Assembly: GCF_004210375.1 (NCBI RefSeq) | Contig: NC_134831.1 | Location: 98,825,522 to 98,889,521 of the forward strand | Direction of reading: 5' to 3' | From: Tachypleus tridentatus | Taxonomy: Eukaryota | DNA: 64,000 nt | Part shown: in pieces, positions 4,059-61,264 of the stretch | How the letters are laid out: each line of letters starts with the position of its first letter | How positions within the stretch are numbered: position 1 is the first letter of the stretch | Notes under the pieces: model-generated | The model's database searches: none | The model's input: the letters and a program-made list of their open reading frames with translations, nothing else | Told to the model about the DNA's origin: nothing | Made by a program: the position numbers and the translations under genes

Positions 4059-4732
4059 ATGGCAAATGAAGAAACGATAGAAGTAAGTGGACGTGTTGAA
4101 TGTCGAGAGGTAGAATTTCATGCGATGCATTTGGAACCACGATCTTTTCGACCTTTCAAGTCTAGTGAAGAGTACTTGTATGCCATGAAGGAAGACCTCG
4201 CTGACTGGTTAAACACCCTATACGGTTTGTCCATCACCGCCGAAACTTTTCTAGATAGCTTAGAAACGGGAGTTATTCTCTGTCGGCATGCAAATCACGT
4301 CGTCAGGGTAGCCAGAGATTGGCGGCACTCTTGCCAGGATAGCCTTAATATTACAATCCCGGAACGCGACATAGTGTACCGTAATGACGTCCAACCCGGC
4401 ACGTTTCATGCTCGAGACAACGTCTCCAACTTTATCACATGGTGTAGGGTCTCTCGATCATGGAATGCTTGCTCTTCGAGACAGACGACTTGGTATTAAG
4501 GAAGAATGAGAAAAGCTTTGTCCTTTGTCTGCTAGAAGTGGCTCGACGGTGTTCAAAATTCGGAATGCCCGCGCCACTGTTGGTGCAGATGGAAGATGAA
4601 ATTGATGCGGAGTTAGCCAAAGCTGGGTTCGAGTCTGATGGGCACGAGGCTGATGACGACTCTGATACGTCGGGGGTTGGAGAACCACCACCTCAAATAG
4701 TCACCAACGATCTTCGAAGTCTTCACGAAAGG
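4059..4732 (+). CDS. GAS2-like protein, first coding exon: calponin-homology (CH) domain plus acidic linker. Contains an apparent 1-nt frameshift near 4446-4449.
   Basis: The ATG at 4059-4061 sits in a good Kozak context (aagaccATGg). Translation gives MANEETIEV...[52 protein letters not shown]...[17 protein letters not shown] (frame 0). It then continues in the +2 frame as [58 protein letters not shown]...LRSLHER. The match to the GAS2/GAS2L CH domain (YLLPMKEDLALWL...LCQLA...[45 protein letters not shown]...LIKLEKEIEQE) is strong on both sides of the shift. The exon ends at a consensus donor AGG|GTAAGA (GT at 4733-4734) in phase 0. A possible acceptor (cctataattttcAG at 3953-3954) upstream suggests a 5 prime UTR exon boundary. 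Confidence 0.8.
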
Positions 4733-4902
4733 GTAAGAAAAAAGAAAACTGTAGTTTCGGAATGGTAATAAACAATACATAAGTTAAATTATTGTAATTT
4801 GTAAAGAACGAATTTCACATATACGAAATACGATTTATCTAGAACAAGGTAAATATGAAAACTGTTTGTTGCTCAGTGTCAACAGTTTTCATTGACAGAG
4901 AA

Positions 4903-5178
4903 AAGCGGCCCGGCATGACCAGGTGGCTATGGCACTCGACTCGTAATCCGTGAGTCGCGGGTTCGAATCCCCGTTTTACCAAACATGCTCGCCCTTTCAG
5001 CCGTGGGGCGTTATAATGTGACGGTAAATCACACTATTAGCTGGTAAGAGTAACCCAAGAGTTGGCTGTGGGTGGTGATGACTAGCTGACTTCCCTGCAG
5101 TCTTGCACTGATAAATTAGAGACTGCTAGCGCAGATAGCCCTCGTGTAGCTTTGCGCGAAACTCAAAACAAACCACGT
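4903..5178 (+). mobile_element. SINE family A copy (~270 bp, tRNA-derived)
   Basis: The head ggcccggcatgaccaggtggctatggcactcgactcgtaatccgtgagtcgcgggttcgaatcc carries an A-box-like TGGCCAGGTGG and a B-box/T-loop GGTTCGAATCC. The body reads gtcaatcccactattcgttggtaagagtagcccaagagttggcggtgggtggtgatgactagctgccttccctc. The tail reads gcgcagatagccctcgtgtagctttgcgcgaaa(c/t)tcaaaacaaa. Confidence 0.85.
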
Positions 5179-6391
5179 CTTATATCATCCTTGTAGTCTT
5201 CTGTCTTATTCTTTCGTCCATTTATAGCTGTCGAACCGCTTGATCGATTGCGAACACTTAAGAACACGACTTTCAAAGTTTTTTATGAAAACAGAAATCT
5301 CGGAAAGCGGAGTTTCAAAGTTAAAACTGTTCTGAAGCAACAACTGCGAAAGAGACCACTTCCCTACCCAAAAAAAAACACAGTAAACGCTACGATAATG
5401 TTAAACGTACCTTCTGGTACCGTTAACAAGACAATATACAATAATTTGTAAGTGACGGAAACTCAGGTTGTTAGCTACATCTGGAAATCAGCAGTTAGTC
5501 CAATAAACTAAAACACAACGATCCAGTTTGACCATATACTTTGACCACGTATGTCTTAATTTTTGGTTAAATGTAGGTGACCTCCAGTAAAAGGTCAATG
5601 GACAGTTTGTCAAGAAGTGTGGTTTAAAATAGATTTGATCGTTCGTTACAGAAGCTTGTTGAAAAATAAACTGGTGTTGGGTAATTATGGCCACCAGGTT
5701 TAGCAGCATCTGTAATGGAGTTCAAAGTGCATTTCAGTTCATTGTTCACATAAATATTGAATATCTCTGTTCATGCCTTTTCCTGGCCAATTTATTCTTA
5801 TTACACACCCGGCTCTCGTTTCATACGTACTGAAACCGTTTATCTGTCTGAATACATAACTTTAAACTTTTTTTCCAAACATGTTATGGAGCAACCCATT
5901 TGGAATACGTGGGTCATTTCAAAAACAAAACTGTATATTTTTGGAAGCATAGAAAAAATAAATGTACTCTAATATTTCAGCAACAAATATTCAGATTACA
6001 CGATTACAACTGCTTCTTCAACTCTGTTTAAATAGAAATTATTTCCCAGGGTAGGAATTGTAATTTTATAAACCATACATCGATTAAAATGTGCAATGAA
6101 ACGTATGTTTAAGTATTCTTTACTTTCCCTATTTTTTATCGTTAAACATTGTGTGTCATATTACCACTGTGAATATATCGGTGATATGTAGAACGTGTAT
6201 TATTGTAATTTTATTTTATTAACCATATAACTTCTTTCTTATACGGTGGTGTAACAAATGGACAGGCAGGAAGTAAGTGGAGAGGGAAAGAAACCATAAG
6301 ATAGATTTATAATCTTTACATCGGTAGTAAATAAGTTAAATCGGTAGCTGGGTATATGTTTAAGATGTATACAAGTTCTCTGAAATTTGTT

Positions 6392-6642
6392 TGTTTTGAA
6401 TTTCGCGCAAAGCTACTCGAGGGCTATCTGCGTTAGCCGTCCCTAATTTAGCAGTGTAAGACTAGTCATCACCACTCACCGCCAACTCTTGGGCTACTCT
6501 TTATCAACGAATGTGATTCACCGTAATATTATAACGCCCCCACAGCTCAAAGGGCGAGCATATTTGGTGCGACCGGTATTCGAACCCGCGACCCTCGGAT
6601 TACGAGTCGAACGCCTTAACACGCTTGGCCATGCCGGGCCGT
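6392..6642 (-). mobile_element. SINE family A copy
   Basis: Reverse complement of the family A consensus, running from tail (gaatttcgcgcaaagctactcgagggctatctgcg) to head (ggccatgccgggcc). Confidence 0.85.
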
Positions 6643-7960: not shown

Positions 7961-8165
7961 ACAACCTTGTTACTAACCAGCATGGCCAGGTGGTTACAAC
8001 CTTGTTACTAACCAGCATGGCCAGGTGGTTACAACCTTGTTACTAACCAGCATGGCCAGGTGGTTACAACCTTGTTACTAACCAGCATGGCCAGGTGGTT
8101 ACAACCTTGTTACTAACCAGCATGGCCAGGTGGTTACAACCTTGTTACTAACCTGTTTGGCCCAG
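7961..8165 (+). repeat. 35-bp tandem repeat (about 5.5 copies) built from the SINE A 5 prime head plus 16 bp of flank, fused to a full SINE
   Basis: The unit acaaccttgttactaaccagcatggccaggtggtt recurs at 7961, 7996, 8031, 8066, 8101 and 8136. The last unit runs directly into the SINE head cagcatggccaggtggttaaggcactcg at 8166. Confidence 0.85.
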
Positions 8166-8428
8166 CATGGCCAGGTGGTTAAGGCACTCGACTCGTAATC
8201 CGAGGGTCGCGGTATCGAATCCTCGTCACAAAAAACAGGCTCGCTCTTTCGGTCGTGAGGGCGTTATAATGTGACGGTCAAGACCACTGTCCGTTGGTAA
8301 AAGAATAGCCCAAGAGTTGGCGGTGGATGGTAATGACTAGCTGCCTTCCCTCTAGTCTTACAATGCTAAATTAAGGACAGCTAGCGCAGATAACTCTCGT
8401 GTAGCTTTAAGTGAAATTCAAAAAACAC
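8166..8428 (+). mobile_element. SINE family A copy
   Basis: Full head, body and tail (catggccaggtggttaaggcactcgactcgtaatccgagggtcgcggtatcgaatcc ... gcagataactctcgtgtagctttaagtgaaattcaaaaaac). Confidence 0.85.
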
Positions 8429-8469
8429 TTAAGGATGCTTTTGTACTTATGTGTTTTGTTTGTAGTTAA

Positions 8470-8689: not shown

Positions 8690-10920
8690 AAACTTTTGAA
8701 AAATTACTGTTAAGTCATAGCAACCAAACGGTACAGAAATATCATGTTTCTGTTTATTTAATAACTTTTGAAAAATCACTGTTAAGTCATAGCAACCAAA
8801 CGGTAGAGAAATATCATGTTTCTGTTTATTTAATAACTTTTGAAAAATCACTGTTAAGTCATAGCAACCAAACGGTAGAGAAATATAATGTTTCTGTTTA
8901 TTTAATAACTTGTGAAAAATCACTGTTAAGTCATAGCAACCAAACGGTAGAGAAATATCATGTTTCTGTTTATTTAATAACTTGTGAAAAATCACTGTTA
9001 AGTCATAGCAACCAAACGGTAGAGAAATATCATGTTTCTGTTTATTTAATAGCTTTTGAAAAATCACTGTTAAGTCATAGCAACCAAACGGTAGAGAAAT
9101 ATCATGTTTCTGTTTATTTACTAGCTTGTGAAAAATCACTGTTAAGTCATAGCAACCAAACGGTAGAGAAATATCATGTTTCTGTTTATTTACTAGCTTT
9201 TGAAAAATCACTGTTAAGTCATAGCAACCAAACGGTAGAGAAATATCATGTTTCTGTTTATTTACTAGCTTTTGAAAAATCACTGTTAAGTCATAGCAAC
9301 CAAACGGTAGAGAAATATCATGTTTCTGTTTATTTACTAGCTTTTGAAAAATCACTGTTAAGTCATAGCAACCAAACGGTAGAGAAATATCATGTTTCTG
9401 TTTATTTACTAGCTTGTGAAAAATCACTGTTAAGTCATAGCAACCAAACGGTAGAGAAATATCATGTTTCTGTTTATTTACTAGCTTTTGAAAAATCACT
9501 GTTAAGTCATAGCAACCAAACGGTAGAGAAATATCATGTTTCTGTTTATTTACTAGCTTTTGAAAAATCACTGTTAAGTCATAGCAACCAAACGGTAGAG
9601 AAATATCATGTTTCTGTTTATTTACTAGCTTTTGAAAAATCACTGTTAAGTCATAGCAACCAAACGGTAGAGAAATATCATGTTTCTGTTTATTTACTAG
9701 CTTTTGAAAAATCACTGTTAAGTCATAGCAACCAAACGGTAGAGAAATATCATGTTTCTGTTTATTTACTAGCTTGTGAAAAATCACTGTTAAGTCATAG
9801 CAACCAAACGGTAGAGAAATATCATGTTTCTGTTTATTTACTAGCTTTTGAAAAATCACTGTTAAGTCATAGCAACCAAACGGTAGAGAAATATCATGTT
9901 TCTGTTTATTTACTAGCTTGTGAAAAATCACTGTTAAGTCATAGCAACCAAACGGTAGAGAAATATCATGTTTCTGTTTATTTACTAGCTTGTGAAAAAT
10001 CACTGTTAAGTCATAGCAACCAAACGGTAGAGAAATATCATGTTTCTGTTTATTTACTAGCTTGTGAAAAATCACTGTTAAGTCATAGCAACCAAACGGT
10101 AGAGAAATATCATGTTTCTGTTTATTTACTAGCTTGTGAAAAATCACTGTTAAGTCATAGCAACCAAACGGTAGAGAAATATCATGTTTCTGTTTATTTA
10201 CTAGCTTGTGAAAAATCACTGTTAAGTCATAGCAACCAAACGGTAGAGAAATATCATGTTTCTGTTTATTTACTAGCTTTTGAAAAATCACTGTTAAGTC
10301 ATAGCAACCAAACGGTAGAGAAATATCATGTTTCTGTTTATTTACTAGCTTTGAAAAATCACTGTTAAGTCATAGCAACCAAACGGTAGAGAAATATCAT
10401 GTTTCTGTTTATTTACTAGCTTTTGAAAAATCACTGTTAAGTCATAGCAACCAAACGGTAGAGAAATATCATGTTTCTGTTTATTTACTAGCTTTTGAAA
10501 AATCACTGTTAAGTCATAGCAACCAAACGGTAGAGAAATATCATGTTTCTGTTTATTTACTAGCTTTTGAAAAATCACTGTTAAGTCATAGCAACCAAAC
10601 GGTAGAGAAATATCATGTTTCTGTTTATTTACTAGCTTTTGAAAAATCACTGTTAAGTCATAGCAACCAAACGGTAGAGAAATATCATGTTTCTGTTTAT
10701 TTACTAGCTTTTGAAAAATCACTGTTAAGTCATAGCAACCAAACGGTAGAGAAATATCATGTTTCTGTTTATTTACTAGCTTGTGAAAAATCACTGTTAA
10801 GTCATAGCAACCAAACGGTAGAGAAATATCATGTTTCTGTTTATTTACTAGCTTGTGAAAAATCACTGTTAAGTCATAGCAACCAAACGGTAGAGAAATA
10901 TCATGTTTCTGTTTATTTAA
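8690..10920. repeat. 72-bp satellite, about 31 tandem copies
   Basis: The exact period is 72 bp (aaaaatcact at 8771 and again at 8843). The unit is tcactgttaagtcatagcaaccaaacggtagagaaatatcatgtttctgtttatttactagcttttgaaaaa, with the variants ttttg/ttgtg and taataact/tactagct. Because 72 is divisible by 3, the tandem copies stay in frame, and this is the sole source of the long ORFs at 8636-10291, 8671-10368 and 10345-10938. Confidence 0.95.
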
Positions 10921-11260: not shown

Positions 11261-12318
11261 TCATATGAAGACGCAAACAAATATGGCTAATGATCGTCTA
11301 AGAATAGCAAAAGGCACAACCTTTCTTTGAATAGAACATACTCCGCAGTAGTCATGACGCTCTACTCATTCCATATGCTTTAATCTCAACGAAAATTCTC
11401 ACAATTTCTTAAGAATGCAACCTGCTTGTTGACTTACCCCCACAGCTGTAACTTGAGGTATGTACACTGAAGGGAATCCTTGAACCCTCTTGTTTTTAGA
11501 TACGTGCAATCTGCGCATTTTTGCATCTGAACATATTGTTATTTTAACATTTTCTCGGGACTCCTCAAAGCAAATTACAGGTTGGCGGAATGTAAAGAGA
11601 TTCAACCACAATAAAAGGTCTCACGGCCGAGCTTCTGGTCGTCATGGACCAGTAAGCAAGAAATTCGCTCGTTAAGAAGGAGGGGGGGAATACATCAGTG
11701 ATGCTTTAAGAGAGTCGTGAAAAATGTATCATATCAGAATATTTTTAATTGCTCAGTAACACTAAAACTTTGGTATCTAGCGGAAAGGTACAACAAACAA
11801 AAGATCAGGTTACTGTGAAGAGAGAACCAGGTTAGTGTAAACTTAAGCCTATTTTCGATTCCTTTTTTTTTTTTTTTTTATCTATAACTAATATATTGCA
11901 CGCATTTAGTTCTGCTGTATTGTGTTTATGTTCGTACGTAGAAGTATCATAAACAGCAGTGATGAAGTGAGGAAATATTAATCATTATAATTATATGTAC
12001 GATATCATGCACTAGTGTTAATGTCCATTTCGTATTGACCACAAATAACTTTGCAAAACGAAGATGCGTGGGTATACGTCAATGTCGAAAATATTCTGTA
12101 TGTTTTTTTGTTTTTTTGAGAGTCGACTGTGTATTTATAAATGATCCGAGGTCGTTGACAGTGCACAACTGTTAACATTTTTCTTCATGTTCGTCTTTTA
12201 CCCAATCTAACAAAATGAAAATAACGAAACCGTGAATTCATCAACTAAGACTATGCTTTCTACGTTCACCAAGTGGTGGCGCTTACAATAAAGTTTGCTC
12301 TCGATTCTTCAGTACTAG

Positions 12319-12592
12319 TCCCGGCATGGCCACGTGGTTATAACACTCAACTCTTAATCTGAGGGTCGTGGGTTCGAATCCCCATCAAACCAAACATACT
12401 CGCCCTTTCATTCGTGGGGGCGTTATATTGTTACAGTCAATCCCACTATTCGTTGGTAAAAGAGTAGCCCAAGAGTTGGCGGTGGGTGCTGATGACTAGC
12501 TGCCTTCCCTCTAGTCTTACACTGCTAAATTAGGGACGACTAACGCAGATAGCCCTCGAGTAGCTTTGCGCAAAATTCAAAACAAACAATCC
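12319..12592 (+). mobile_element. SINE family A copy
   Basis: cccggcatggccacgtggttataacactcaactcttaatctgagggtcgtgggttcgaatcc ... cgcagatagccctcgagtagctttgcgcaaaattcaaaacaaaca. Confidence 0.85.
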
Positions 12593-15761: not shown

Positions 15762-18448
15762 AAGGTAATAATCTATTAGTAGCATCACACTGCTTACCAG
15801 ATGTCAAAATATAGTTCTGATCAATAATCTATTAGTAGCATCACACTGCTTACCAGATGTCAAAATATAGTTCTAATCAATAATCTATTAGTAACATCAC
15901 ACTGCTTACCAGATGTCAAAATATAGTTCTGATCAATAATCTATTAGTAGCATCACACTGCTTACCAGATGTCAAAATGTAGTTCTAATCAATAATCTAT
16001 TAGTAGCATCGCACTGCTTACCAGATGTCAAAATGTAGTTCTAATCAATAATCTATTAGTAGCATCGCACTGCTTACCAGATGTCAAAATGTAGTTCTAA
16101 TCAATAATCTATTGGTAGCATCGCACTGCTTACCAGATGTCAAAATGTGGTTCTGATCAATAATCTATTAGTAGCATCACACTGCTTACCAGATGTCAAA
16201 GTGTAGTTCTAATCAATAATCTATTAGTAGCATCACACTGCTTACCAGATGTCAAAATGTAGTTCTAATCAATAATCTATTAGTAGCATCACACTGCTTA
16301 CCAGATGTCAAAATGTAGTTCTAATCAATAATCTATTAGTAGCATCACACTGCTTACCAGATGTCAAAATGTAGTTCTAATCAATAATCTATTAGTAGCA
16401 TCACACTGCTTACCAGATGTCAAAATGTAGTTCTGATCAATAATCTATTAGTAGCATCACACTGCTTACCAGATGTCAAAATGTAGTTCTAATCAATAAT
16501 CTATTAGTAGCATCGCACTGCTTACCAGATGTCAAAATGTAGTTCTAATCAATAATCTATTAGTAGCATCGCACTGCTTACCAGATGTCAAAATGTAGTT
16601 CTAATCAATAATCTATTGGTAGCATCGCACTGCTTACCAGATGTCAAAATGTGGTTCTGATCAATAATCTATTAGTAGCATCACACTGCTTACCAGATGT
16701 CAAAATGTAGTTCTGATCAATAATCTATTAGTAGCATCACACTGCTTACCAGATGTCAAAATGTAGTTCTAATCAATAATCTATTAGTAGCATCACACTG
16801 CTTACCAGATGTCAAAATGTAGTTCTGATCAATAATCTATTAGTAGCATCACACTGCTTACCAGATGTCAAAATGTAGTTCTAATCAATAATCTATTAGT
16901 AGCATCACACTGCTTACCAGATGTCAAAATGTAGTTCTGATCAATAATCTATTAGTAGCATCACACTGCTTACCAGATGTCAAAATGTAGTTCTGATCAA
17001 TAATCTATTAGTAGCATCACACTGCTTACCAGATGTCAAAATGTAGTTCTGATCAATAATCTATTAGTAGCATCACACTGCTTACCAGATGTCAAAATGT
17101 AGTTCTGATCAATAATCTATTAGTAGCATCACACTGCTTACCAGATGTCAAAATGTAGTTCTGATCAATAATCTATTAGTAGCATCACACTGCTTACCAG
17201 ATGTCAAAATATAGTTCTGATCAATAATCTATTAGTAGCATCACACTGCTTACCAGATGTCAAAATGTAGTTCTGATCAATAATCTATTAGTAGCATCAC
17301 ACTGCTTACCAGATGTCAAAATATAGTTCTAATCAATAATCTATTAGTAGCATCACACTGCTTACCAGATGTCAAAATGTAGTTCTAATCAATAATCTAT
17401 TAGTAGCATCACACTGCTTACCAGATGTCAAAATATAGTTCTAATCAATAATTTATTAGTAGCATCACACTGCTTACCAGATGTCAAAATATAGTTCTAA
17501 TCAATAATCTATTAGTAGCATCACACTGCTTACCAGATGTCAAAATGTAGTTCTGATCAATAATCTATTAGTAGCATCACACTGCTTACCAGATGTCAAA
17601 ATGTAGTTCTCATCAATAACCTATTACTAGCATCACACTGCTTACCAGGTGTCAAAATGTAGTTCTAATCAATAATCTTAGTAGGATCACACTGCTTACC
17701 ACATGTCAAAATATAGTTCTAATCAATAATCTATTAGTAGCATCACACTGCCAACCATATGTCAAAATGTAGTTCTAATCAATAATCTATTAGTAGCATC
17801 ACACTGCTTACCAGATGTCAAAATGTAGTTCTAATCAATAATCTATTATTAGCATCACACTGCTTACCAGATGTCAAAATGTAGTTCTAATCAATAATTT
17901 ATTGGTAGCATCACACTGCTTACCAGATGTCAAAATGTAGTTCTAATCAATAATCTTAGTAGCTTCACACTGCTTACCAGATGTCAAAATATAGTTCTAA
18001 TCAATAACCTATTAGTAGCATACACTGCTTACCAGATGTCAAAATGTAGTTCTAATCAATAACCTATTAGTAGCATACACTGCTTACCAGATGTCAAAAT
18101 ATAGTTCTAATCAATAACCTATTAGTAGCATACACTGCTTACCAGATGTCAAAATGTGGTTCTGATCAATAATCTATTAGTAGCATCACACTGCTTACCA
18201 GATGTCAAAATGTAGTTCTAATCAATAACCTATTAGTAGCATCACACTGCTTACCAGATGTCAAAATGTAGTTCTGATCAATAACCTATTAGCAGCATCA
18301 CACTGCTTACCAGATGTCAACATGTAGTTCTGATCAATAATCTATTAGCAGCATCACACTGCTTACCAAATGTCAACATGTAGTTCTGATCAATAATCTT
18401 TTTGTAGCATCACACTGCTTACCGGGTGTCAAAATATAGTTCTAATAT
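15762..18448. repeat. 56-bp satellite, about 48 tandem copies
   Basis: The period is 56 bp (cttaccagat at 15961 and again at 16017). The unit is tcaataatctattagtagcatcacactgcttaccagatgtcaaaatgtagttctaa, with the variants a/g (aaaatatag or aaaatgtag), ctaatc/ctgatc and catcacac/catcgcac. Copies become progressively more diverged toward the 3 prime edge (17600-18448). Confidence 0.95.
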
Positions 18449-19089
18449 TTGTCATTCCTCTACGATTATATTGGCTCTGGTTGTCGCGTAACTTGCTGAT
18501 TTGCATATTCAAAATATTTTTCGTATAACTTATTCAACCTTCTACATATACAGTATATGGTGGTTAAGGTCTCTGTCATATATAAACACACTAATGTTTT
18601 TTACCTGCATATACTAATATAGAATTTTTCAGAATTGTTATTTTTCATACCATTTTGGTAAAAAAAAAAGTTAAATTATTTTCACTTCTTCGAGTACCCA
18701 CTGTACAGTCACCTGTGCAGAGTAACACATTGTCTTCTCATTTGCAAAATGTAAGGTGTTGTTTTTCCACTGTAAAGGTAACGATTTCTCTTGTATTTCA
18801 TTGTGGAAATTGGAATCACTAGTCACGTGTATAATGCTAGTTGCTCTCCTGGACTTTTGTTAATGGTGTAAATGGATATTTAGATTTTTTTTAAATCTAC
18901 ACATGTAGATGAACGTTTGACACGTAAGTTGTTTTACATCACATTTTCAATAAATTTTTGATATGAGTTCTCGAATTTTGAACGTTCCTGTAAAACAAAG
19001 GACAAAACGTTGTCCTACTGGCCAGTGTAGTTTTTCTCATCCTAGTGTTTCTCCAGGTATTTACTGCGCTGAATGATGGAAGGTTTTTT

Positions 19090-19348
19090 TCTTTTTGAAT
19101 TTCGCACAAAGCTACACGCCGACTATCTGCGCTAGCCGTCTCTAATTAGCAGCGTAAGACTAGATGGAAATCAGTTAATCATCACCACCAACTCTTAGGC
19201 TACTTTTTCCAACGAATAGTGGACTTAACCGTCACATTATAATGCCCCCACGGCTGAAAGGACAAGCATATCTATGACGGGGATTCGAACCAGCGACCCT
19301 CGCATTACGAGTCTCGCGCCCTAACCACCTCACTGGCCATCCTGGGCC
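19090..19348 (-). mobile_element. SINE family A copy
   Basis: Reverse complement from tail (gaatttcgcacaaagctacacgccgactatctgcgctagc) to head (gggattcgaaccagcgaccctcgcattacgagtc ... ggccatcctgggcc). Confidence 0.85.
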
Positions 19349-24257: not shown

Positions 24258-25345
24258 CTATTAAATCTTGGGTTTTACAAGCTGATATACTGGTATATAT
24301 ACACTTTATAAAGCCCACGACCGTGGTAGAATATTATTAAATCTTGTGTTTTACAAGCTGATATACTGGTATATATACACTTTATAAAGCCCACGACCGT
24401 GGTAGAATATTATTAAATCTTGTGTTTTACAAGCTGATATACTGGTATATATACACTTTATAAAGCCCACGACCGTGGTAGAATATTATTAAATCTTGTG
24501 TTTTACAAGCTGATATACTGGTATATATACACTTTATAAAGCCCACGACCGTGGTAGAATATTATTACAATCTTGGGTTTTACAAGCTGATATACTGGTA
24601 TATATACACTTTATAAAGCACACGACCGTGGTAGAATATTATTAAATCTTGTGTTTTACAAGCTGATATACTGGTATATATACACTTTATAAAGCCCACG
24701 ACCGTGGTAGAATATTATTACAATCTTGGGTTTTACAAGCTGATATACTGGTATATATACACTTTATAAAGCCCACGACCGTGGTAGAATATTATTACAA
24801 TCTTGGGTTTTACAAGCTGATATACTGGTATATATACACTTTATAAAGCCCACGACCGTGGTAGAATATTATTACAATCTTGGGTTTTACAAGCTGATAT
24901 ACTGGTATATATACACTTTATAAAGCCCACGACCGTGGTAGAATATTATTACAATCTCGGGTTTTACAAGCTGATATACTGGTATATATACACTTTATAA
25001 AGCCCACGACCGTGGTAGAATATTATTACAATCTCGGGTTTTACAAGCTGATATACTGGTATATATACACTTTATAAAGCCCACGACCGTGGTAGAATAT
25101 TATTACAATCTCGGGTTTTACAAGCTGATATACTGGTATATATACACTTTATAAAGCCCACGACCGTGGTAGAATATTATTACAATCTCGGTTTTACAAG
25201 CTGATATACTGGTATATATACACTTTATAAAGCCCACGACCGTGGTAGAATATTATTACAATCTCGGGTTTTACAAGATGATATACTGGTATATATACAC
25301 TTTATAAAGCCCACGACCGTGGTAGAATATTATTACAATCTCGAT
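24258..25345. repeat. 77 to 79-bp satellite, about 14 copies, with block-wise variants
   Basis: The unit is (attaaatcttgtg | attacaatcttggg | attacaatctcggg)ttttacaagctgatatactggtatatatacactttataaagcccacgaccgtggtagaatatt. The three variants occur in consecutive blocks along the array. Confidence 0.9.
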
Positions 25346-27784: not shown

Positions 27785-28195
27785 AACTATACAATAAACC
27801 TACTGAACAGCACAGAAATAATACAATAACGAACTGCATAACAGACCACTAGTTTTGAACTAAATAGAGATCGAGGTAACGCCCTCGACTGTACAATAAA
27901 CCTACTGAACAGCACAGAAATAATACAATAACGAACTGCATAACAGACCACTACGTTTTGAACTAAATAGAGATCGAGGTAACGCCCTCGACTGTACAAT
28001 AAACCTACTGAACAGCACAGAAATAATACAATAACGAACTGCATAACAGACCACTACGTTTTGAACTAAATAGAGATCGAGGTAACGCCCTCGACTGTAC
28101 AATAAACCTACTGAACAGCACAGAAATAATACAATAACGAACTGCATAACAGACCACTACGTTTTGAACTAAATAGAGAGCGAGGTAACCAAGTG
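27785..28195. repeat. 103-bp tandem repeat, about 4 copies
   Basis: ctgtacaataaacctactgaacagcacagaaataatacaataacgaactgcataacagaccactacgttttgaactaaatagagatcgaggtaacgccctcga recurs at 27889, 27992 and 28095. The short ORFs at 27624-28147 are repeat artefacts. Confidence 0.9.
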
Positions 28196-31851: not shown

Positions 31852-31902
31852 TATGTCAACCCCATCGTATCTGTTAACTCTGTTATATTCAACTTTGTGA
31901 GC

Positions 31903-32078
31903 TCGGCATTGCCAGGTGGTTATGGGGCTCGACTCGTAATCCGAGGGTCACGGGTTCGAATCCCCGTCATACCAAACATGCTCGCCCTTTCAGCCGTGGG
32001 GACGTTATAATGTAATGGTCAACCTCACTATTCGTTGGTAAGAGTAGCCCAAGAGTTGGCGGTGGGTGGTGATGGCTA
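31903..32078 (+). mobile_element. SINE family A copy, 3 prime truncated
   Basis: gctcggcattgccaggtggttatggggctcgactcgtaatccgagggtcacgggttcgaatccccgtcataccaaacatgctcgccctttcagccgtgggg...ggtgggtggtgatggctat, then unrelated sequence follows. Confidence 0.8.
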
Positions 32079-32665: not shown

Positions 32666-34170
32666 CCCATAGGTCTTAAAACAAAGCAAACAAATCAGTT
32701 AGCCAATAACTTTTAATAACCAAAAGCTTGGATACTAGAATAAATTTATTTGTAATTACGAAGATGGTTCTCGTAAATAAATTAATAAATGTTTGAAATT
32801 ATTAGCAAATTAAGAACAAAAATAAAAACTTGCGATAATTCTTGTATTATGTTAAAACTGCTTTTTCTCCAGTCAACAGAAAACGTTGAGCTAACTACAT
32901 TACTGCTAAGAAGGCATTTAGTGATAATTTATTATCGTAACAATCAATATTAAATACTAGCGAAAATACCTGGCTTCGCTCGGGTTATTAGGTTGATTTA
33001 TTATAGATTGTCATTCTGTGTATTCTAACGTATATACTTTGTCGTTTTGCACGGGATGTGACATATTTAATAAAGGTAAATTTCCTCTGGCTGTTCTCCG
33101 ATTTTAAACTTATAATTTTGAAATTTTGTTAGAGGTTTTATTTATCATCATTTAAGTTTTATCGGTTTATATATTTCACTATGTTTACAGCGCACTCTTG
33201 ACAGCAGTATCAGGTTTATACTTTTATTGCTAAGAAACGATAAAAAGCCATTGTTGGAACGTATTATCAAAACGCACTAGCTTTTCTATATATTAGAAGT
33301 TGTATAAATAATCACTGTGTTTTCACTAGTTTGCTTCATTAAAAAGTTGAGCACGCACGTGCGTGTATCTGCCGGTCTACCTGCTGCTCTGTAAGTAGTA
33401 GGATAATTAAGTGAATATTAGGTTCGAGACGTCATTACATGTAAAATTTACTCAACGTTAAGACTAACGAAATATGGAGATTTAAATTGAGTGTTAAAGT
33501 AAGTTTTTGTATTAAATATATATTAAACTTCTCAATTATAGTAACAATGTTTTCATGATGTCACAATTGTTTCGTATACTTTTAGTATTGCATAAGTTGA
33601 AAACTACTCCCTTCTAATTGGCAGGAAGCCAAACGACTTAAATGACGTAATAAGTTGCTATGACATCAGTGCGTGGTCGAGAGACAGATACTGTGTTTTT
33701 ATACTGTTAGATTTAACTGAAAAAATCGAACGACTTGCAATTTTTGATTTCTCAGTTATAAGAGCACCGACTTTTGTTTCTTACAATTCCACTCCCCGGA
33801 GTATTTCTTTTTTCATTTAAATATTTAATATTATTTCTACAGATATATGGTTATGTAGAGTGCGTTCGTGTTGGTCTCCAAAATATTGAACAACGTTAAT
33901 GATAGAAACAAGCTTTAAACGATGCAACAGAGGGAGGAATTTTAATGAAATTATGACGTTTTAAGACGTCAAATGTTATGGCTGATTACAACAAAACTAA
34001 CGAATTATAATTCATCGTTATCTGAATTACATTTAATCAGAGTAAGCTTATCACAATTATAAAAGCACATCCTTCTTTATGGCCAACAACCTGATATACC
34101 AGTTCTCATTTCGAGTTATGAACTGGAGAAAGCAACATGGGGGTGGATGCTATGATAAATAACATAAAAG

Positions 34171-34445
34171 GCCCGGTATGGCCAGGTGGTTAAGGCGCTC
34201 AACTCGTAATATGAGGGTCGCGGGCTGGAATCACAGCCACACCAAAAATGCTCGCCTTTTCAACTGTGGAGGAATTATAATGTGACTGTCAATCCCACTA
34301 TTTCTTGGTAAGAGTAGCCCAAAAGTTGGCGGTTTGTGGTGCTGACTAGCTACCTTCCCTCTAGTTTGACATTGCTGAATTAGAGAATGCCTACGAAGAT
34401 AGCTCTTGTGTAGCTCTTTATGCGAAATTTAAAAACAAAACAAGA
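34171..34445 (+). mobile_element. SINE family A copy
   Basis: gcccggtatggccaggtggttaaggcgctcaactcgtaatatgagggtcgcgggctggaatc ... gaagatagctcttgtgtagctctttatgcgaaatttaaaaacaaaaca. Confidence 0.85.
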
Positions 34446-36377
34446 CAAAAGCCCTAACTTTCATACAATTTATATTTATAACGTAACATATTACAGTATT
34501 AATTATTACTTCACCAAGAGTTGCGTAAGGTTTAAGAACTCGGTATATTTGAAACATGGTCAGGGTGACTTTGTAGGATGTGTCAGAGGACAATATAGTG
34601 ACAGTAGGGGTGCTTTCTGTTACCCACTTTCAACACCCATCTTTCTCCACAGTGTTTCACGTGACTAATTCACAATTGTTAGCTGCAGAAGTGTCTTACG
34701 GGCTTAAGGTCATGGGTCAAAGTAAGAGGTGGGTAAAACAACAGAAAAGGACTTCATATCAACCCTATGATAGCTTTTGGGTAGAAACTTCTAAGTTTAT
34801 GTATTACTGCAATAGTGGCGGCCATTGCTTTAACTGCATTCCTCCATATAGGGATAAACAAGGGGTCGTGTGTGCACATTGAACAGTCCACATAAGTGGT
34901 TGCAAAAATCATCCCCCCTCATCGGGTGTAATAAATCTTCGCCTCTGCGTATAAGGTATGTGCAATCAAAATTAAATGTATCAGCTGCTATGTGTTCTGC
35001 TTCTAGTATTCGTCCTTAATCGAAAGGAGAGAAACGGAAAACAAATTCAACAACCATTAAGACTTGTAAACATCTGATATTGTCGTTCATGGCTACTACG
35101 GAGACTTCAAAATTTTCAACAAACTAGCAGAAAAATAAAACGTAAATAGTTTATTATAGTGCTGAAATATTTTATGAAACTTAACGACTATTTTGGGCTG
35201 GGCGTGGGTAAGTTGTTAGCGTGCCCGGATTGTGAATCTAAGGATTTATGGTGCGTGACCCATTTCCGTTAAAACTAGTTCCACACTTTAGAGTGCTGTG
35301 GACACGTTTTAAGATGAACGGTCAAATTCCACCATTCAAACTGGCAATAGTAGAACAATAAATAATTGGTTAGTTGCTTTCGTTCTAGTCTGTCGACAGC
35401 TGTTCATGATAGCTGTATGTAGTCTTACATGGAGTTCTGAAACAGACTATAATAAACCTCTCTGAAACTGGATATATAAAGACGTTTTGTATTAATTAAC
35501 CAATAAATAAATATCTTCTTGTTACTAGAGTTAAATTATCGCGGATGAAAGTTTATTTGCATGTACCAGTTGCTTTCTGCGCGTAACTACTGCGTAATTA
35601 TCGACAGGAAACTGAACCATGTCACATTGAGTAAACACTGTTATTTGTGCCAGTGGAAAGTGACATCACAAAATTCCATTTCTGTTTTCCCAAAATATTT
35701 ACCAGGTATTTTTTGTCTCATTATATAAAAGACTTTATTTTTACTGTAGCTTTTTCAAGAAGTCTTAAATGTACTGTATTACAAACGTAAAAAATCAAAG
35801 TAAATCATGAAAAGCAACAAAGCAGAAGAAACTTTTAATTATCTTAATTCTAGAATTGTCTGCGTGCGGTTTGATTTTTAAACATTTTATAGACCAAATT
35901 TCTTGTTGGTCTATATTTTGTTCGTTGTAAGACTTCTAGTAGCATACAAGTAAAAAAAAAAAAAAAAATAAACATTTACACTATTGCTATTAGTTCTACT
36001 AATTACTGCTAGGGTTTCCAGTTTTCTCTGTTCTCGCACAAAAGCAGGGAATTACTGAAGATGATACAGTATCTGAAACCCACCAGTATCAAAACAAATC
36101 CAATTTAAGGGTTCATTATTTGACTTTTTCTCTAAAGGAGTCCGTAAGTTTATTAATAATAAATCTACTAAATGGATAAATAATCGTAAGTCGAGATGTG
36201 ATATTTTGAAGTTAATCGTAAGTTGTAAATTTAGAAAAGGTGAAATGCACTTGCTTTAACATTTCGCTAATGTGAACGTAAAGCTATGACTCATGTTGAA
36301 AATATTGAATTTCAGAGGATAAACATTATAATGTATCACATCAAGAAACCACATCCTATTTGCTGTTACTTTATAAA

Positions 36378-36632
36378 CAGCCATGTGGTTAAAGTGCTCG
36401 ACTCGCAATCTGAGGATCGCGAGTTCGAATTCCTGTCCTACCAAACATGTTTGCACTTTCAGCCGTGGTGGCGTTATAATGTCAGTCAATCCCAGTGTTC
36501 GTTGGTGAGAGTAGTTCAAGAGTTAGTGGCGGGTGGTGATGATTAGCTGCCTTCCCTCTAATTTATCAATACTAAATCAGGGCCGAGAAACGCTGACCTC
36601 TCGTGTAGCTTTGCGCAAAATTTAAACCACGT
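36378..36632 (+). mobile_element. SINE family A copy (diverged)
   Basis: cagccatgtggttaaagtgctcgactcgcaatctgaggatcgcgagttcgaattcc ... ctctcgtgtagctttgcgcaaaatttaaacc. Confidence 0.8.
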
Positions 36633-37457: not shown

Positions 37458-37704
37458 AGGCCTAGCATGGTCAGGTGTTTACAGCGCTCGACTCGTAATC
37501 TGAGGGCCGCGAATTCGAATCCCCGTCACATCAAATATGCTCAATGTAACAGTCAATCCTCCTTTTCGTTGGCAATAGTATCCCACGAGTTGGCGGTGGG
37601 TGTTGATGACTAGCTGCCTTCCCTCTATTTTTACTGCTAAATTAGAGACAGCTAGTGCAGATAGCTCTCGTGTAACTGCGCGAAATTAAAAAAACAAAGA
37701 AAAC
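37458..37704 (+). mobile_element. SINE family A copy with an internal deletion
   Basis: ggcctagcatggtcaggtgtttacagcgctcgactcgtaatctgagggccgcgaattcgaatccccgtcacatcaaatatgctcaatgtaacagtcaatcc ... gtgcagatagctctcgtgtaactgcgcgaaattaaaaaaac. Confidence 0.8.
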
Positions 37705-38704
37705 ATGCCTTTGCTTGTGGTTAGTGATTTTTTTTTTTTTACAAATAAAGCCTGTTCATAGAAAATGACTTAATTTAAAAACAAATATGGACGGTCGACA
37801 TTCGTATGCAGAACGGCCTAAAGTGAATAACATATACTTATGCTTATTTGAGTACATATGCAAATTATGTTGAGGTATATACTGTACTAGTGTTTCTATA
37901 GTATTAGTTCATTTCTCTTCGTGTTCAAGCAGATTGGAAGGAGAAAATGGAACAGTCCAGTTGTAAAAACTGCAGCATATATAAAAACTAAACCAGGAAG
38001 TCGTGTGTTCTAGAAACAAACAGTTTAATTGTAGGTTAAAAAAACCAAAACGAAACATTTGTCATGTAAATGTGGAAAATACTGATTAATATTTATATTT
38101 TAAATTGATATTCAAGAACAAATTAAAAAGCTTTTTCCATGTTTGTATTTTTCCTACCTATCACGTTTTCAGTCTTCTCGCACATCTGGCGTCAGCCACC
38201 CTGTCAACCCATCTTAAATGTAATGCCTCTTATGTTTTTCTCACTGTCCACTACAAAATAAATTTATAAACGTGACTGGCGATGAAACGACGTAGTTTCC
38301 AAACTTCCCATGATCCTCAGCGACACCAGAGTTTAGATAACAGAAGAAAAAACCGAGTAAAAATGATTAATTCGGATATTTATGCGAGAACGAACTAGAT
38401 CGAAGTTTGTAACGATTACAGAAATACTGTACATTGGAATGAGGAAACCCAAATGACTTCTGTGTTTTTAATGAAAGCAGACTAACATTTGAAGTTTTAT
38501 ACCTGCTTAAAACATCACAGCGCTGTCCTTTTTCTCTCTCCTAGTATCTGTATCTGAAGAAATGACTGTTTACTCTAAAGCTGCGTCGTATATAACAGAG
38601 CAAACAAGTTGTACGTTCCACAAATAATTAATTTATTCCAGCCAGGGTTTCGCTGATAAGTTTCTTTGCAGTTGTCCGGTGTCCTTAATTCTGTTTTTAT
38701 TTGT

Positions 38705-38897
38705 TGTTGTTTTTTAATTTCGCGCAAAGCTACATGAGGGCCATCTGCTCTAGCCGTTCCTAATTTAGCAGTGTAAGACCAGACGGAAGGCAGCTGGTCA
38801 TCACCAACCACCGCCAACTATTGGGCTACTATTTTATCAACGAATAGTGGGATTGCCCGTGACATTATAACGCCCCTGCAGGGGCGAGCATGTTTGT
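38705..38897 (-). mobile_element. SINE family A copy, head-truncated
   Basis: taatttcgcgcaaagctacatgagggccatctgctctagccgttcctaatttagcagtgtaagac ... gtgacattataacgcccctgcaggggcgagcatgtttg. Confidence 0.8.
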
Positions 38898-39224: not shown

Positions 39225-39560
39225 GTTTAGAAAGGCATGATGCATACAATACAACTTGTATAATTAGAAAGGCATGATGCATACAATACAACTTGTATAA
39301 TTAGAAAGGCATGATGCATACAATACAACTTGTATAATTAGAAAGGCATGATGCATACAATACAACTTGTATAATTAGAAAGGCATGATGCATACAATAC
39401 AACTTGTATAATTAGAAAGGCATGATGCATACAATACAACTTGTATAATTAGAAAGGCATGATGCATACAATACAACTTGTGTAATTAGAAAGGCATGAT
39501 GCATACAATACAACTTGTGTAATTAGAAAGGCATGATGCATACAATACAACTTGTGTAAT
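39225..39560. repeat. 37-bp tandem repeat, about 9 copies
   Basis: ttagaaaggcatgatgcatacaatacaacttgtataa is repeated with period 37 (aaaggcatga at 39231 and again at 39268). The last copies carry tgtgtaa instead of tgtataa. Confidence 0.9.
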
Positions 39561-41065
39561 TAAATTATTTTTTGAAAATTTTACATGTCTTCCACATGTG
39601 GGTGTTGATAATTTTTCAGTTACAGGTAGCTTTAGTGTTTGGTTTATCCTTATCAGATAAGCTATTTTCACAAATTAAGTTGTTGTTTTTTTGTTATATT
39701 CACCCATAAGAGTTTGTCTTCCCACGCATCGTTCTTGCGCTTACCACCCCATCCGCCCATCTTAAATATAATACTTTCTATATGTCGCTCTAGAAAGCGG
39801 ACCACACTAGTCGCGTCACACTTTATGGGAGGAGCTAGATAGAAATTTGTTTAAACCATTGAATTTTAAGCTGTTAGATATAACCTGACTGTAAACTTGC
39901 TGAAAAATGTAAAACAATCTTTATATAACACAAAGCCAAAAGACTAAAATTGCATGTATTAGTATGGACGTGATACTTTAGAACTGGTTCGGTAAATAGT
40001 TCGACAGCTTCGTTCTTACTGAGATACATCTCAAGTACTCATTTCTTTCTTAAAAACGGACAATCTCGGTCTTAACCAGAACCAAATGCGTTATCATGTG
40101 ACTAGTCATTCTCTTACGACAGGTTGTGTGTCGTCTAGATGTGTAAACTTTATATTACAGGTTTAGTTTATCTAGATGCGGTTGTTTTGTTTAGAACTTT
40201 CTCGATATTTTTCGTGTAATATAGGATGTATAATTTACTAAGGTCAGAGGTTACAGTAAGTATGAGTCAATGTTTTGTCACGACTAAAACTTGCTTGCAA
40301 ATACTTTACCTAACAGTGTAGTCTTAGCTTATATTTTAAGCTACGTGTAGTTAAAGTAGAATTAGCTTAGCTGTAATCGAGATTAGTTTAAAATAGACCA
40401 TTTTCTAATCCATACGCAGGACTTTAGCAAGTTTTGGGTAAACATTACAACTTAAAGGTGTCTACAACCCGTTTTTCTCTTTGTTGCTGAGCAGTGTTTT
40501 CATCTCGGACAAGTTATGTTACAACAAACAAAAACTATCGATGTACGGGTAGTAACTAAGGTCTTACTCTCGTATTTTAGTTTAACCCATACAAGAGCTT
40601 GACATCTCACGTACAAAATACTCAAAAATAACATTGGTAATTCTCTCTCATATAAATCAGTTTAAGTTACGGTAAGATAGCATCTCACGTTCGATGTGAC
40701 AGTCAACTTTTCATGTTAATTCGTGAGTTCATTGTTTGTCTTTCTTGGTTTAGCTCTATGTTGCATCGCAGAAGATCAGGTTAGCAAAGTTCTAATTTTC
40801 CTTATGTAAAACCCTCGAAGTTATTGATCATTAGCCTCGTATGTCTAGGAAAATTGTAGTGTTGCTTTCAGTATAAACGTATTGGGCTGTAAGTTTATAC
40901 TAGTTCTTAAACAGTATGTTCTACACACGACCTCATTTTATGTACAATAATATATTAAATATTTTTTTTACTTTGTTTCACCTACAGTTCTGTTACGTCA
41001 GTCAAAACGTATACTGTGAACGTGCAATGACTGACGTTTGTTTCAGTCACAATAGATACAGATAT

Positions 41066-41297
41066 CGCCCTGCATGGCCCATCGTAATCTGAGGGTCTCG
41101 AGTTCGAATCCCAGTAACAACAAATACACCCGCCCTTTGGGGGCATTATAATGTGACGGTCAATCCCATTATTCTTTGGTAAAAGAGTTGGCGGTGGGTG
41201 GTGATGACTAGCTACCTTTCCCTCTAGTTTTACACTTAAATTAGGGGCGGCTAGTAGCCATCGTGTAGCTTCGCGCGAAATTCAAAAACATACAGAA
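41066..41297 (+). mobile_element. SINE family A copy (diverged, small deletions)
   Basis: ctgcatggcccatcgtaatctgagggtctcgagttcgaatcccagtaacaacaaatacacccgccctttgggggcattataatgtgacggtcaatccc ... gtagccatcgtgtagcttcgcgcgaaattcaaaaaca. Confidence 0.8.
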
Positions 41298-43268
41298 ATT
41301 GCGGAATGACAAAAAAAAAAATACTGAACTTAGTTTTACCCATTTAAAGGTGTGTATAAAACAGGCGTCGCTAGGTGCTTACAAGGTTCGAGGGTCGAGA
41401 CCATAGGCGCGGGAATTTCCGGCGTTTCAGTATGATATTGGTTATGGTTTCTTATTCTGATTTTCAGAGACAACTGGATATTCGAGGGCACGTGTACCAT
41501 ACTTAAGTTAACTCTAAAGCATAACATGTCTTTTAAATCTTGAAAAACCTAGCTTTAACGTTTTCTTGTTGTCATAATAATTCTATAGAAGTGAATGTTT
41601 TCTGTCGAATGAGGCTGGCTGTCGTAACGAATAGCCCAAGATAAAATGTTTCTCGCCGTAAATTATACTTGCTTCAAATTGAAGACGGGCAACTGAGTTT
41701 GTCACAGTTTATTGACAAAGTGTTTAACACATGTTAAGGAAACATGAGGTGACAAAGTAATACAGTGAGTTCCGAACTGACTGTAGCCAAAATGGCGCTC
41801 GGGATGCAATAAATAATTTGTCGCCCTATAAATGTTTCATCATCTTTATTTGATTTTTTTCACTTTGTTAACGTGGTATTTCAGTTTCTCAACGTTTTCA
41901 CACCATTTCAACAGTACTACTGTTAAAATAGCGTGTGGGCGTGTACATGAAGTCTATCTAAAACTAGGACTTAACCACAGATACTACTGGGCTCTTTTTA
42001 GGCATGTCTTAAGGATCGCATTAATGCAACTTTTGTAATTTGTACGAGGGGCTCTTGACGCCCCCAATACAGTTGCGTCCTGTCAGTAGCCTTCTTGCTT
42101 TGTCTGTAAAATATTCTTTGTTAATCTGATGACTAAACGTAATGTGTCCAAGTGGCCTCAACTTCTGTTGTATTATAATAATACATCGGTGCTGGGTTAA
42201 TTTTTCTCCTGACTGGGCAGTTCGAACGAGTGATTGACAGTGTTAGTCCATCATATGTTCCCCTTTAGAATTTAGCTATTACTGTACACAGTTTATTCAA
42301 AAGCTCTCATAAATTAAACAAAACTTACTGATTTATAGGGAGTTTAGCTGCCTGACTCTGAATTCCTTACAAAGTGGTGGCAGAATTTCTTTATATGACG
42401 CAAGAATAAAATAATTCCATCTTGGTTTTATATCTTGAGTTAAATACAACAAAAACTGTTTACAATAATATGTATGGAGTAAGATCTTGGATCTTACTGA
42501 ACTGTGTCAACAGACATGTAGACAGGACCGTACAAACTAAACGGTCAGTTCGTAGGCCCTATAGTCTTGAACCACTGCTCCATCACTTGAACTTACCACT
42601 GCAAAGGCAGTAAGTTAGCAGTACCCGCCACGCAAGGGATTTGTCCATCTTTTTAAACCGGATAATTGTTCCCTATCAACAACTCAGCTATAGCTGAAAG
42701 TGTGGAATCGCCTTTCAGACTAAAGACCACGCGATCTGCAACCAAGGACATTAATCCCTAGATCAGACGTACATGTTGGGATATGTACAAAAATATACGA
42801 GTAACCAATATTAATTTCCCATTTTACTGTCACAAGTCGGTTTTCTGAAGGAGGGTGAGAGAAAGATCTATTTCCATGGTACGTTCGTCCATTTAAAAAA
42901 CAATGTATGAATAGTTGGTCCACTTAAACAATTCATGAATACACACGCATGTGGTGTGTTGTGAACCTAATCGAATTTTAAGTTAACTTTTGTTAACGAT
43001 CGTGGTTTAACTTCCCCCACTCTTCCACATAAACCATTAAATCCGATTAACCACGACTTTTATGGTGAGTATCCAACTGTACTCACGAACGTTAAAGGCA
43101 GTGCTGAGGTCAGAGTAACTTGTTCTCAAACTGTCGAATTAAAACTGGATTCACTGTTTGTGGCGAGAGATAAGGAGGGTACGTTACAATAAGCTGGTGA
43201 GTGTATGTTGTACGTACTTAGAATAGGTCAAAATATACAGTGTGTGTGTATTAATTTCAACTTACATA

Positions 43269-53515: not shown

Positions 53516-53623
53516 GTTGTGGAACTTTTGAATCGATGTACCTGCCCTTTCCAGTTCCCAATGATTAGAGTATCAGATGGGAAATATCGCATTGGAGACA
53601 CAAAAACTCTCATTTTTGTTAGG
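53516..53623 (+). CDS. GAS2-like protein: GAR (GAS2-related) domain exon, N-terminal half
   Basis: The acceptor is ccacatatctttcAG|gttgtgg (AG at 53514-53515). Translation VVELLNRCTCPFQFPMIRVSDGKYRIGDTKTLIFVR matches the GAS2 GAR domain (CKCPNKFCVERLSQGRYRVGEKILFIR). The donor is AGG|GTGAGT (GT at 53624-53625). The exon is in phase 0 at both ends, which is compatible with the phase-0 end of the 4059-4732 exon. Confidence 0.8.
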
Positions 53624-56877: not shown

Positions 56878-56971
56878 ATTCTTCGGAACCACGTGATGGT
56901 ACGGGTAGGAGGTGGGTGGGACACTCTGGAGCATTATTTAGATAAGCACGACCCCTGTCAATGCCGAATTG
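56878..56971 (+). CDS. GAS2-like protein: GAR domain exon, C-terminal half
   Basis: The acceptor is tttgtcttctTAG|attcttcgg (AG at 56876-56877). Translation [31 protein letters not shown](G) matches the GAS2 core [29 protein letters not shown]. The donor is TTG|GTAAGT (GT at 56972-56973). The exon ends in phase 1. Confidence 0.85.
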
Positions 56972-58465: not shown

Positions 58466-58500
58466 AAGTTTTTGCGATGTAATTTTGAAATTAATTACAG

Positions 58501-58582
58501 GCCACAGGTCATCGTCATCGGCTAAAGTGTCCATGACTCCAGGAAAGGACGGGTCAACTAATATGAAGGTTACGTACAACAG
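58501..58582 (+). CDS. GAS2-like protein: short linker exon (82 bp)
   Basis: The acceptor is gaaattaattacAG|gccacagg (AG at 58499-58500). With the one carried-over nucleotide g, translation reads G HRSSSSAKVSMTPGKDGSTNMKVTYN plus ag. The donor is CAG|GTACGT (GT at 58583-58584). The exon runs from phase 1 to phase 2, which fits exactly the phase left by the 56878-56971 exon and the phase required by the 59875 exon. It contains no stop codon. Confidence 0.6.
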
Positions 58583-59874: not shown

Positions 59875-61264
59875 ATCTTCACCGTACAACTTCAGTCTCT
59901 CCACGTCACCACAAACACGTCGACGCATGTTGGCCATTTCTTCGGGTCAGCAAGACATTGGCCCATCTACTGACACACATGACATTCCACCACGTGAACC
60001 GTCAAGAAGTTCTCACTACAGCGACGACTCGTCGACATCTAGTGCCAGCCTATATTACTATAGTGAAAGTTCATCTCAAGAGGAAGGCAAGTTTGCAAGG
60101 TCATCGCGGCCACTACCCTGCACTGCAGATAGTTCTTCCGAATTCTCTGAAGGAGAAAGTCGAGCAGGTTCTCGAATCTCTAGTCAACCCCGAAAATCCA
60201 GTCTTCGGAAGTTGTATTGCATGTCAGAAAATGGGGACATGGTTGACAACTGTTCCCGTGTATATTTGTCAGATGGTTGTGACTCTGGCTTTGGTCCCGA
60301 ATCGTCAGAAACAAGTTCAGTCCTTTCGGGAGATGACCAGCGAAAAGTTAGGGACATGGGAAAAACTAGGTTAAAGGACACAAAGCAAACTCCTGGACAA
60401 GTCTCTAAAGATGCCCCTGTGGATTCAAGTTTGTCCGACGGTAGCACACCAACTTTAAAGTCTGTAAAGAAAGTCAAACAAGTTTCAGTAAGCCCATCTG
60501 GAAGGAAAATGACACCAAACATTAGTTATAAATCTCAAAGCACGGAAAATTTATACTGGTGCAAATATAGCGAAAGAGTCCAGATGAATCGCCAGAACAG
60601 TTCCAGATCATCAGTTTATGGTCATAAAGACCGATGTTCGTTAACAGATTCTTCAAGCTGTACATCAACTATTCCTAGATGTTATTCTCAAGCTAGTGAT
60701 ATTGGTGGACTTGGATCATCTTTGACCAGAAACACTCCAGGACGGTTTTCATATAAACCCCCGACAGACGTTCGGCCAAAAGTGGACACAGGAAGTAAAA
60801 CGTGGGCTTTCAGACAGCGTTCCACTAGATCTTCCATCAGCCCCGATTTCTGTCGTAACCCTTCTAGAGGAAGCAACATTTCTCCTATTAAGACTAAAAC
60901 AAACCTCAAGTCCCGAAGTGCCGAATCAAGCCCTGCCAAATCGATTGTAACAGCTACTAAAGTGCAGAAACTTCTAGAAGACATTGATTTAGCCACAGAT
61001 GACACATTTTTCAATGAAATGCAGAGATTTATAAGTAACTATCGAGAGAAAATCGAGAATAAATTACAAAATGAACAAGAAGATTCACATTTGAACGATG
61101 TTGAGAGCACTTCATCAACACCAACCATGTTATACTCTCCAGATTCTGATCGCCCACCAAGTCGTGGTTTCGGTTATAATCAACAGTCCCCCAAGTTTCG
61201 ACCTAGGAGAGAAAGTCAGGGAGGATCCACAAAAATTCCACTACCAGTTTGGTATAACAAATAA
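59875..61264 (+). CDS. GAS2-like protein: terminal exon encoding the long Ser-rich low-complexity tail, with a C-terminal TKIP (SxIP-like) motif. Stop TAA at 61262-61264.
   Basis: The acceptor is ttatattttttaaattccttgcAG|atcttc (AG at 59873-59874). With the two carried-over nucleotides ag, translation reads R SSPYNFSLSTSPQTRRRMLAISSGQQ ... The open frame then runs 1.39 kb, corresponding to the 445-aa ORF at 59927-61264. It is Ser/Thr-rich and basic, as the GAS2L C-terminal tails are, and ends ...GGSTKIPLPVWYNK*. AATAAA signals lie at 61365-61370 and 61600-61605. Confidence 0.75.

Follow-up and report, generated by a model that had tools for sequence, protein, structure and literature searches.

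The closest described relatives of the gene studied here are Drosophila Pigs (pickled eggs) and the vertebrate proteins GAS2L1 and GAS2L2, which appear to share one order of parts, namely an N-terminal CH domain, followed by a GAR/GAS2 domain and by a disordered tail of SxIP type at the C-terminus. A cytolinker function of the GAS2-like family is the subject of two reports (PMC4058111, PMC4732294), as is the binding of EB by SxIP motifs in these proteins. Human GAS2, with structures of its CH domain (PDB 9kbx) and GAR domain (1v5r, 9kbw), is short, without the long tail. With regard to gene loss, Nong et al. (2021; PMC7815833) describe segregating pseudogenising deletions in duplicated genes of horseshoe-crab populations, and for homeobox genes the continuing loss of duplicates has been documented in populations. 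One case is Unpg-A1 of C. rotundicauda, a whole-genome-duplication paralog with a disabling deletion, which was confirmed by population resequencing.

We have analysed a stretch of 64,000 nucleotides of Tachypleus tridentatus DNA (hereafter the window; NC_134831.1, positions 98,825,522 to 98,889,521) that contains a GAS2-like gene interrupted by a single missing base. In contrast to Pigs and GAS2L1/GAS2L2, the window copy as written cannot yield the full protein. Our main reading, to which we assign a probability of about one half and which we slightly favour over an assembly error, is that the lesion is genuine and very young, a loss-of-function allele that still segregates or has become fixed only recently. 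It would then resemble Unpg-A1 in being a disabling deletion in one whole-genome-duplication paralog, although in a different gene and known from one assembly.

Gene structure and orthology

The gene lies on the forward strand and consists of five exons, all with canonical GT-AG splice sites. Exon 1 (4059..4732) contains the start codon, the CH domain and the frame break, and was delimited by tblastn, splicing and the Pfam CH match obtained after repair; it measures 674 nt versus 675 nt in the Limulus ortholog. The first part of the GAR/GAS2 domain is encoded by exon 2 (53516..53623; AG/GT boundaries, tblastn) and the second by exon 3 (56878..56971; tblastn, splice sites and the Pfam GAS2 match), followed by exon 4 (58501..58582; tblastn, splice sites). 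Exon 5 (59875..61264; ORF, splicing and homology) encodes a Ser-rich low-complexity tail of 463 codons that terminates in ...GGSTKIPLPVWYNK and ends with the stop codon TAA at 61262-61264. The open reading frame that an earlier sequence-only reading described as a 445-codon exon is present at 59927-61264, but it forms only part of exon 5. The same reading held the remaining exons to be intact, which agrees with the canonical splice sites, with length differences that are all in frame, and with a frame that is open for 782 codons once repaired.

After the one-nucleotide repair, the product matches Pfam PF00307 (CH) with 42.9 bits over residues 43-166, covering positions 3-108 of the 109-position profile, whereas the unrepaired product breaks off at profile position 73. 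Exons 2 and 3 give a match of 111.8 bits to PF02187 (GAS2/GAR) at residues 223-290, and the GAR domain also matches PDB entries 5x57, 1v5r and 9kbw. The alignment to the GAS2 CH domain across the break, which the sequence-only reading had proposed, was reproduced with the human structure 9kbx (E = 2.3e-28). Near the C-terminus the tail contains the SxIP-type motif TKIP (61229..61240, forward strand), kept in all horseshoe-crab paralogs retrieved, which is a candidate EB-binding motif. The intact protein, with its CH domain, GAR domain, Ser-rich tail and SxIP-type motif, would be an actin-microtubule cytolinker.

The best protein matches are horseshoe-crab entries named 'GAS2-like protein pickled eggs' or 'GAS2-like protein 1'. 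Queried with exons 2-5, the search returned the Limulus polyphemus 'GAS2-like protein 1' (P0121, 796 aa), which is 87% identical over the whole tail. This protein likewise has CH and GAR domains and a Ser-rich tail, terminating in ...STKIPLPVWYNK. The collinearity of its locus (L002, on KI894836.1) with the window extends across the introns, and about 29 kb can be aligned; intron blocks are 64-78% identical, and those that cover exons 1 and 5 about 85%. The two loci share the five exons and their intron phases, and the repaired window protein is 88.7% identical to P0121 overall and 93.3% in exon 1. The Limulus exon 5 is longer by 14 codons through in-frame indels. On these sequence comparisons, the window gene is the ortholog of Limulus 'GAS2-like protein 1'. 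Orthology to an annotated member, together with the CH and GAR domains, places it in the GAS2-like (GAS2L/Pigs) family, as a five-exon, 782-codon horseshoe-crab gene of the pigs/GAS2L1 type with a long Ser-rich tail; the earlier identification as GAS2 itself does not hold, since the long tail marks the GAS2-like branch.

Protein searches found several paralogs in both Limulus and T. tridentatus. A second Limulus locus (L001, protein P0001) is an ohnolog with an exon 1 that is 78.6% identical, and its flanks have no similarity to the window except for dispersed repeats. The divergence between the T. tridentatus and Limulus members of the ohnolog pair is similar to that between the window gene and its Limulus ortholog (dS 0.36), which places the window in a horseshoe crab other than Limulus, of Asian type.

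Two further observations concern gene structure. Intron 1 (4733-53515) is about 48.8 kb long here and about 51 kb in Limulus (L002 5676-56678); its position and phase are conserved, and it has many collinear non-coding blocks that are 65-77% identical at a dS of about 0.36. The T. tridentatus ohnolog protein P0123 (LOC143253691, isoform X2) does not contain the first half of the GAR domain, the segment that matches window exon 2 (…SLHER|ILRNHVMV…); this is either an exon-skipping isoform or a gap in the gene model.

The frame break and the missing base

Three-frame translation of 4059-4760 shows an open frame from the ATG at 4059 (forward strand) that reads MANEET...NFITWCR, of which the last codon is the AGG at 4446-4448. 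The original frame then runs through 16 aberrant codons to a premature TAA at 4497-4499, also present in the ORF list, with four exon junctions further downstream. Homology to the CH domain past the break, up to ...SLHER, is read solely in the -1 frame, starting at 4448. In tblastn alignments all 120 homologs switch frame between 4448 and 4451, and because they all do so at one place the break is not a matter of chance similarity. The spliced coding sequence of 2348 nt leaves a remainder of 2 on division by three, and one added base gives the open 782-codon frame. The single +1/-2 frame break within the CH domain, placed by the sequence-only reading at 4440-4465 in a G-run (GGG, at 4447-4449), is thus seen both in translation and in tblastn. 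It had also been said to fall inside the most conserved CH motif; this needs correcting, as the residue following WCR is Q, K, H, S, A or G in the family, and the break adjoins conserved motifs rather than striking an invariant residue.

The identity of the missing base can be read from the relatives. The Limulus ortholog and the ohnolog both have AGGAGTCT at the break site. In the DNA alignments both Limulus genes read TGG TGT AGG AGT CT (Arg-Ser-Leu) where the window reads TGG TGT AGG-GT CT, and the T. tridentatus ohnolog protein carries WCRSLSIMEC. The Limulus ortholog has an intact AGG AGT CTG. Measured against AGG-A-GT (Arg-Ser) at both Limulus loci, the window site AGG|GT (4446..4450, forward strand) lacks a base between 4448 and 4449. 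Since both Limulus copies read AGG-AGT-CT, the lost base would most simply be the A of the Ser codon following WCR and not a G of the G-run; deletion of this A is the sole single-base deletion that turns AGGAGTC into AGGGTC. The GGG run would then most simply be a product of the deletion, the ancestral context GGAGT having a lone A between Gs and no homopolymer.

An extra G, which the sequence-only reading had proposed as the repair, restores the frame equally well (WCRG), but the relatives read Ser, so an additional Ser to Gly substitution would be needed. Where that reading had suggested a comparison with the ortholog in related species, the Limulus ortholog and ohnolog were found in frame with AGG AGT and not GGGG. 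The loss of an A flanked by Gs weakens the argument for a homopolymer miscall. Other members of the family do have Gly after WCR, and for this reason a change from GGGG to GGG keeps some plausibility.

Selective constraint and competing explanations

Substitution ratios between the window gene and its Limulus ortholog were calculated by the Nei-Gojobori method. The dN/dS value is 0.10 in exon 1 before the break and 0.07 after it, 0.03 in the GAR exons, 0.18 in the tail (exon 5) and 0.13 for the whole gene (dS 0.36). Besides the break, the two coding sequences differ in length by in-frame gaps only, 14 codons in total. Aligned non-coding sequence has 0.032 indel events per bp, 77% of them not multiples of three. 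At this rate, a coding sequence free of constraint ever since the split should have acquired about 28.7 frame-shifting indels on the window lineage; 1 is observed. With zero further lesions, any loss of constraint would fall within roughly the last 10% of the lineage, and the lesion, if real, would be roughly of the order of 10 My old or less, given a split near ~135 My, the figure in the abstract of PMC7815833.

A relative-rate test assigned 28 amino-acid changes to the window lineage alone and 15 to Limulus alone (p = 0.066). Gene-specific relaxation was considered as a cause and rejected, as the intact and functional ohnolog pair has the same asymmetry, with 33 changes in T. tridentatus and 19 in Limulus (Fisher p = 1.0); the equal asymmetry points to a lineage effect and not to relaxation of the window gene.

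These results bear directly on the view that the gene is an old, fixed pseudogene, a dead copy from whole-genome duplication. Such a history would suit a lineage that arose through polyploidy and has lost many of its duplicates (PMC7815833). Against it are the low dN/dS in every part of the gene (0.03-0.18), the single frame-shifting indel where about 28.7 would be neutral expectation, the multiples of three among all other coding indels, and a rate asymmetry no different from that of the ohnolog pair. The constraint analysis therefore excludes an old pseudogene, which we regard as very improbable. One lesion, retained introns, dN/dS of 0.13 and no gene-specific acceleration are not the marks of a decayed copy, be it processed or unitary. 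A second possibility that we consider highly improbable is that the gene functions despite the deletion, by programmed -1 frameshifting at 4446-4450, by a frame-restoring GT-AG splice or by initiation at the ATG at 4460. Conservation of the downstream frame would suit such a rescue, as would the ATG 12 nt past the break in the correct frame and the existence of frame-restoring GT..AG pairs, but the youth of the lesion already accounts for the conserved frame. Programmed -1 ribosomal frameshifting was rejected, as the site (U GUA GGG / UGU AGG GUC) has no canonical X XXY YYZ slippery heptamer, the frameshift is not conserved in the Limulus ortholog and ohnolog, which are plainly in frame here, and no stimulatory structure was found downstream, the 125 nt from 4436 folding no better than shuffled sequences (-29.7 kcal/mol versus a shuffle mean of -30.0; z = 0.09). 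The earlier opinion that programmed frameshifting or editing is unlikely is in line with these results. Frame-restoring cryptic introns were likewise rejected; many GT..AG pairs occur by chance, the shortest 'introns' would span 26-90 nt, and all have poor donors and would delete conserved residues of the CH core. The ATG at 4460..4462 (forward strand; M of SIMECLL), the first in the downstream frame, opens a spliced ORF of 648 codons that would be without about two thirds of the CH domain, and several ATGs lie upstream of it, so that its use is speculative. Less likely to our mind than a null allele is that the copy is kept as a CH-less, GAR- and SxIP-containing microtubule-only protein started there, a case of sub-functionalisation by truncation.

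The question is then mainly whether the base is absent from the animal or from the assembly. In an assembly or consensus error, the animal's gene would be intact (AGG AGT CTC or AGG GGT CTC), a base having been dropped in long-read consensus or polishing. Where long-read assemblies retain errors, these are typically single-base deletions. The 64 kb contain not a single N and resolve near-identical tandem arrays of 2.2-2.7 kb, which suggests an assembly of this kind, and the site is now a G-run. That the gene is otherwise intact, strongly constrained and free of signs of decay fits an error well and counts against a null allele, since a consensus error is expected to leave the same pattern. In 7.7 kb of arrays, four singleton units fall short by 1 nt; these may be further errors or real variants. 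On the other side, the relatives have GGAG where the window has GGG, and the ancestral GGAGT, a lone A between Gs, is not a homopolymer; an undercounted G-run would require the additional Ser to Gly substitution at the same codon. Hundreds of homopolymers within repeat units lack length noise, those of 3-5 nt being constant in length in nearly all array copies, and in the 72-nt array 29 of 30 units have exactly that length; the indel is also the only one in 2.35 kb of coding sequence. The ancestral context and the constant homopolymers favour a real allele, and we hold an assembly error to be a strong contender at somewhat under even odds.

A real and very young null allele is the reading that we prefer, with chances that we judge to be about even. 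The deletion would probably be present in the animal itself and not in the assembly alone. It would remove the A of the Ser codon after WCR, changing AGG AGT CTC to AGG GTC TC, and the mRNA as written would specify 130 correct and 16 aberrant residues before a stop within exon 1. Such a product, with its CH domain incomplete and both the GAR domain and the tail missing, would be null, and the frameshifted transcript would probably be subject to nonsense-mediated decay. The null state could be tolerated through the several whole-genome-duplication paralogs kept in the lineage; this history of whole-genome duplications, which left several paralogs, adds to the plausibility of a real null allele, as do the segregating disabling deletions documented in duplicated genes of horseshoe-crab populations (PMC7815833). 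The loss of this ohnolog may have only just begun, with a real deletion as a still-segregating null allele of a strongly constrained cytolinker gene, a proposition that we would neither bet on nor against. The sequence-only reading had named an assembly indel and a very recent or heterozygous null allele as the realistic alternatives, and the constraint together with the single lesion leaves these two standing. Both are ordinary explanations. A real lesion would be a single dated instance, no older than about a tenth of the lineage, of duplicates still being lost in horseshoe crabs long after their genomes were duplicated; an artefact would call for no more than the correction of a single gene model. 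In either case, current knowledge of GAS2-like proteins, frameshifting or polyploid genome evolution is unchanged.

Searches for the product itself gave the following. With the tail as query, no protein was found closer than the 87%-identical Limulus ortholog, T. tridentatus RefSeq proteins included; the absence of a T. tridentatus ortholog protein would fit a locus not annotated as protein-coding. Exact look-up of six ORF variants, among them the frameshifted, G- or S-repaired, downstream and exon-5 ORFs, returned none. For the frameshifted product, a homology search returned no sequence nearer than those of Limulus, and the negatives from exon-1 queries are weak, because in these word-indexed protein searches exon-1 queries also missed P0121, 93% identical there, which the tail query returned. 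A metagenome scan for both forms of the break site, one carrying the extra base and one lacking it, returned 0 matches.

Repeats in the window

A dispersed repeat family of about 270 nt with a tRNA-like head (e.g. ...GGTTCGAATCCCCG... at 4955-4975) occurs on both strands. Copies in the first half of the series lie at 4905-5175, 6385-6640, 8158-8430, 12316-12590, 19085-19348, 31901-32078 and 34159-34449, and those in the second half at 36380-36629, 37459-37705, 38686-38896, 41082-41298, 43602-43852, 50708-50919 and 56371-56626. Copies are also found in both Limulus loci. The family is probably a tRNA-derived SINE; ARAGORN detected no intact tRNA in the window.

Intron 1 contains five very homogeneous tandem arrays, of 72 nt x 31 (8693-10919), 56 nt x 48 (15767-18446), 77 nt x 14 (24259-25341), 103 nt x 4 (27786-28189) and 37 nt x 9 (39227-39562). 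The 72-nt array gives rise to spurious ORFs of 551-565 aa on both strands. In the 56-nt array three adjacent units have a common 1-nt deletion and two others a common 2-nt deletion; being shared within the array, these short units have been propagated and are real variants.

Two perfect tandem repeats were also found. One, of 35 nt x 5.5 (7961-8153), has a unit, …CCAGCATGGCCAGGTGGTT, similar to the 5' head of the SINE-like repeats (GGCATGACCAGGTGGCT, near 4910), and the array may be derived from the SINE head. The other, of 61 nt x 5 (58161-58466), stops 34 nt short of the acceptor site of exon 4 (58501), on its upstream side.
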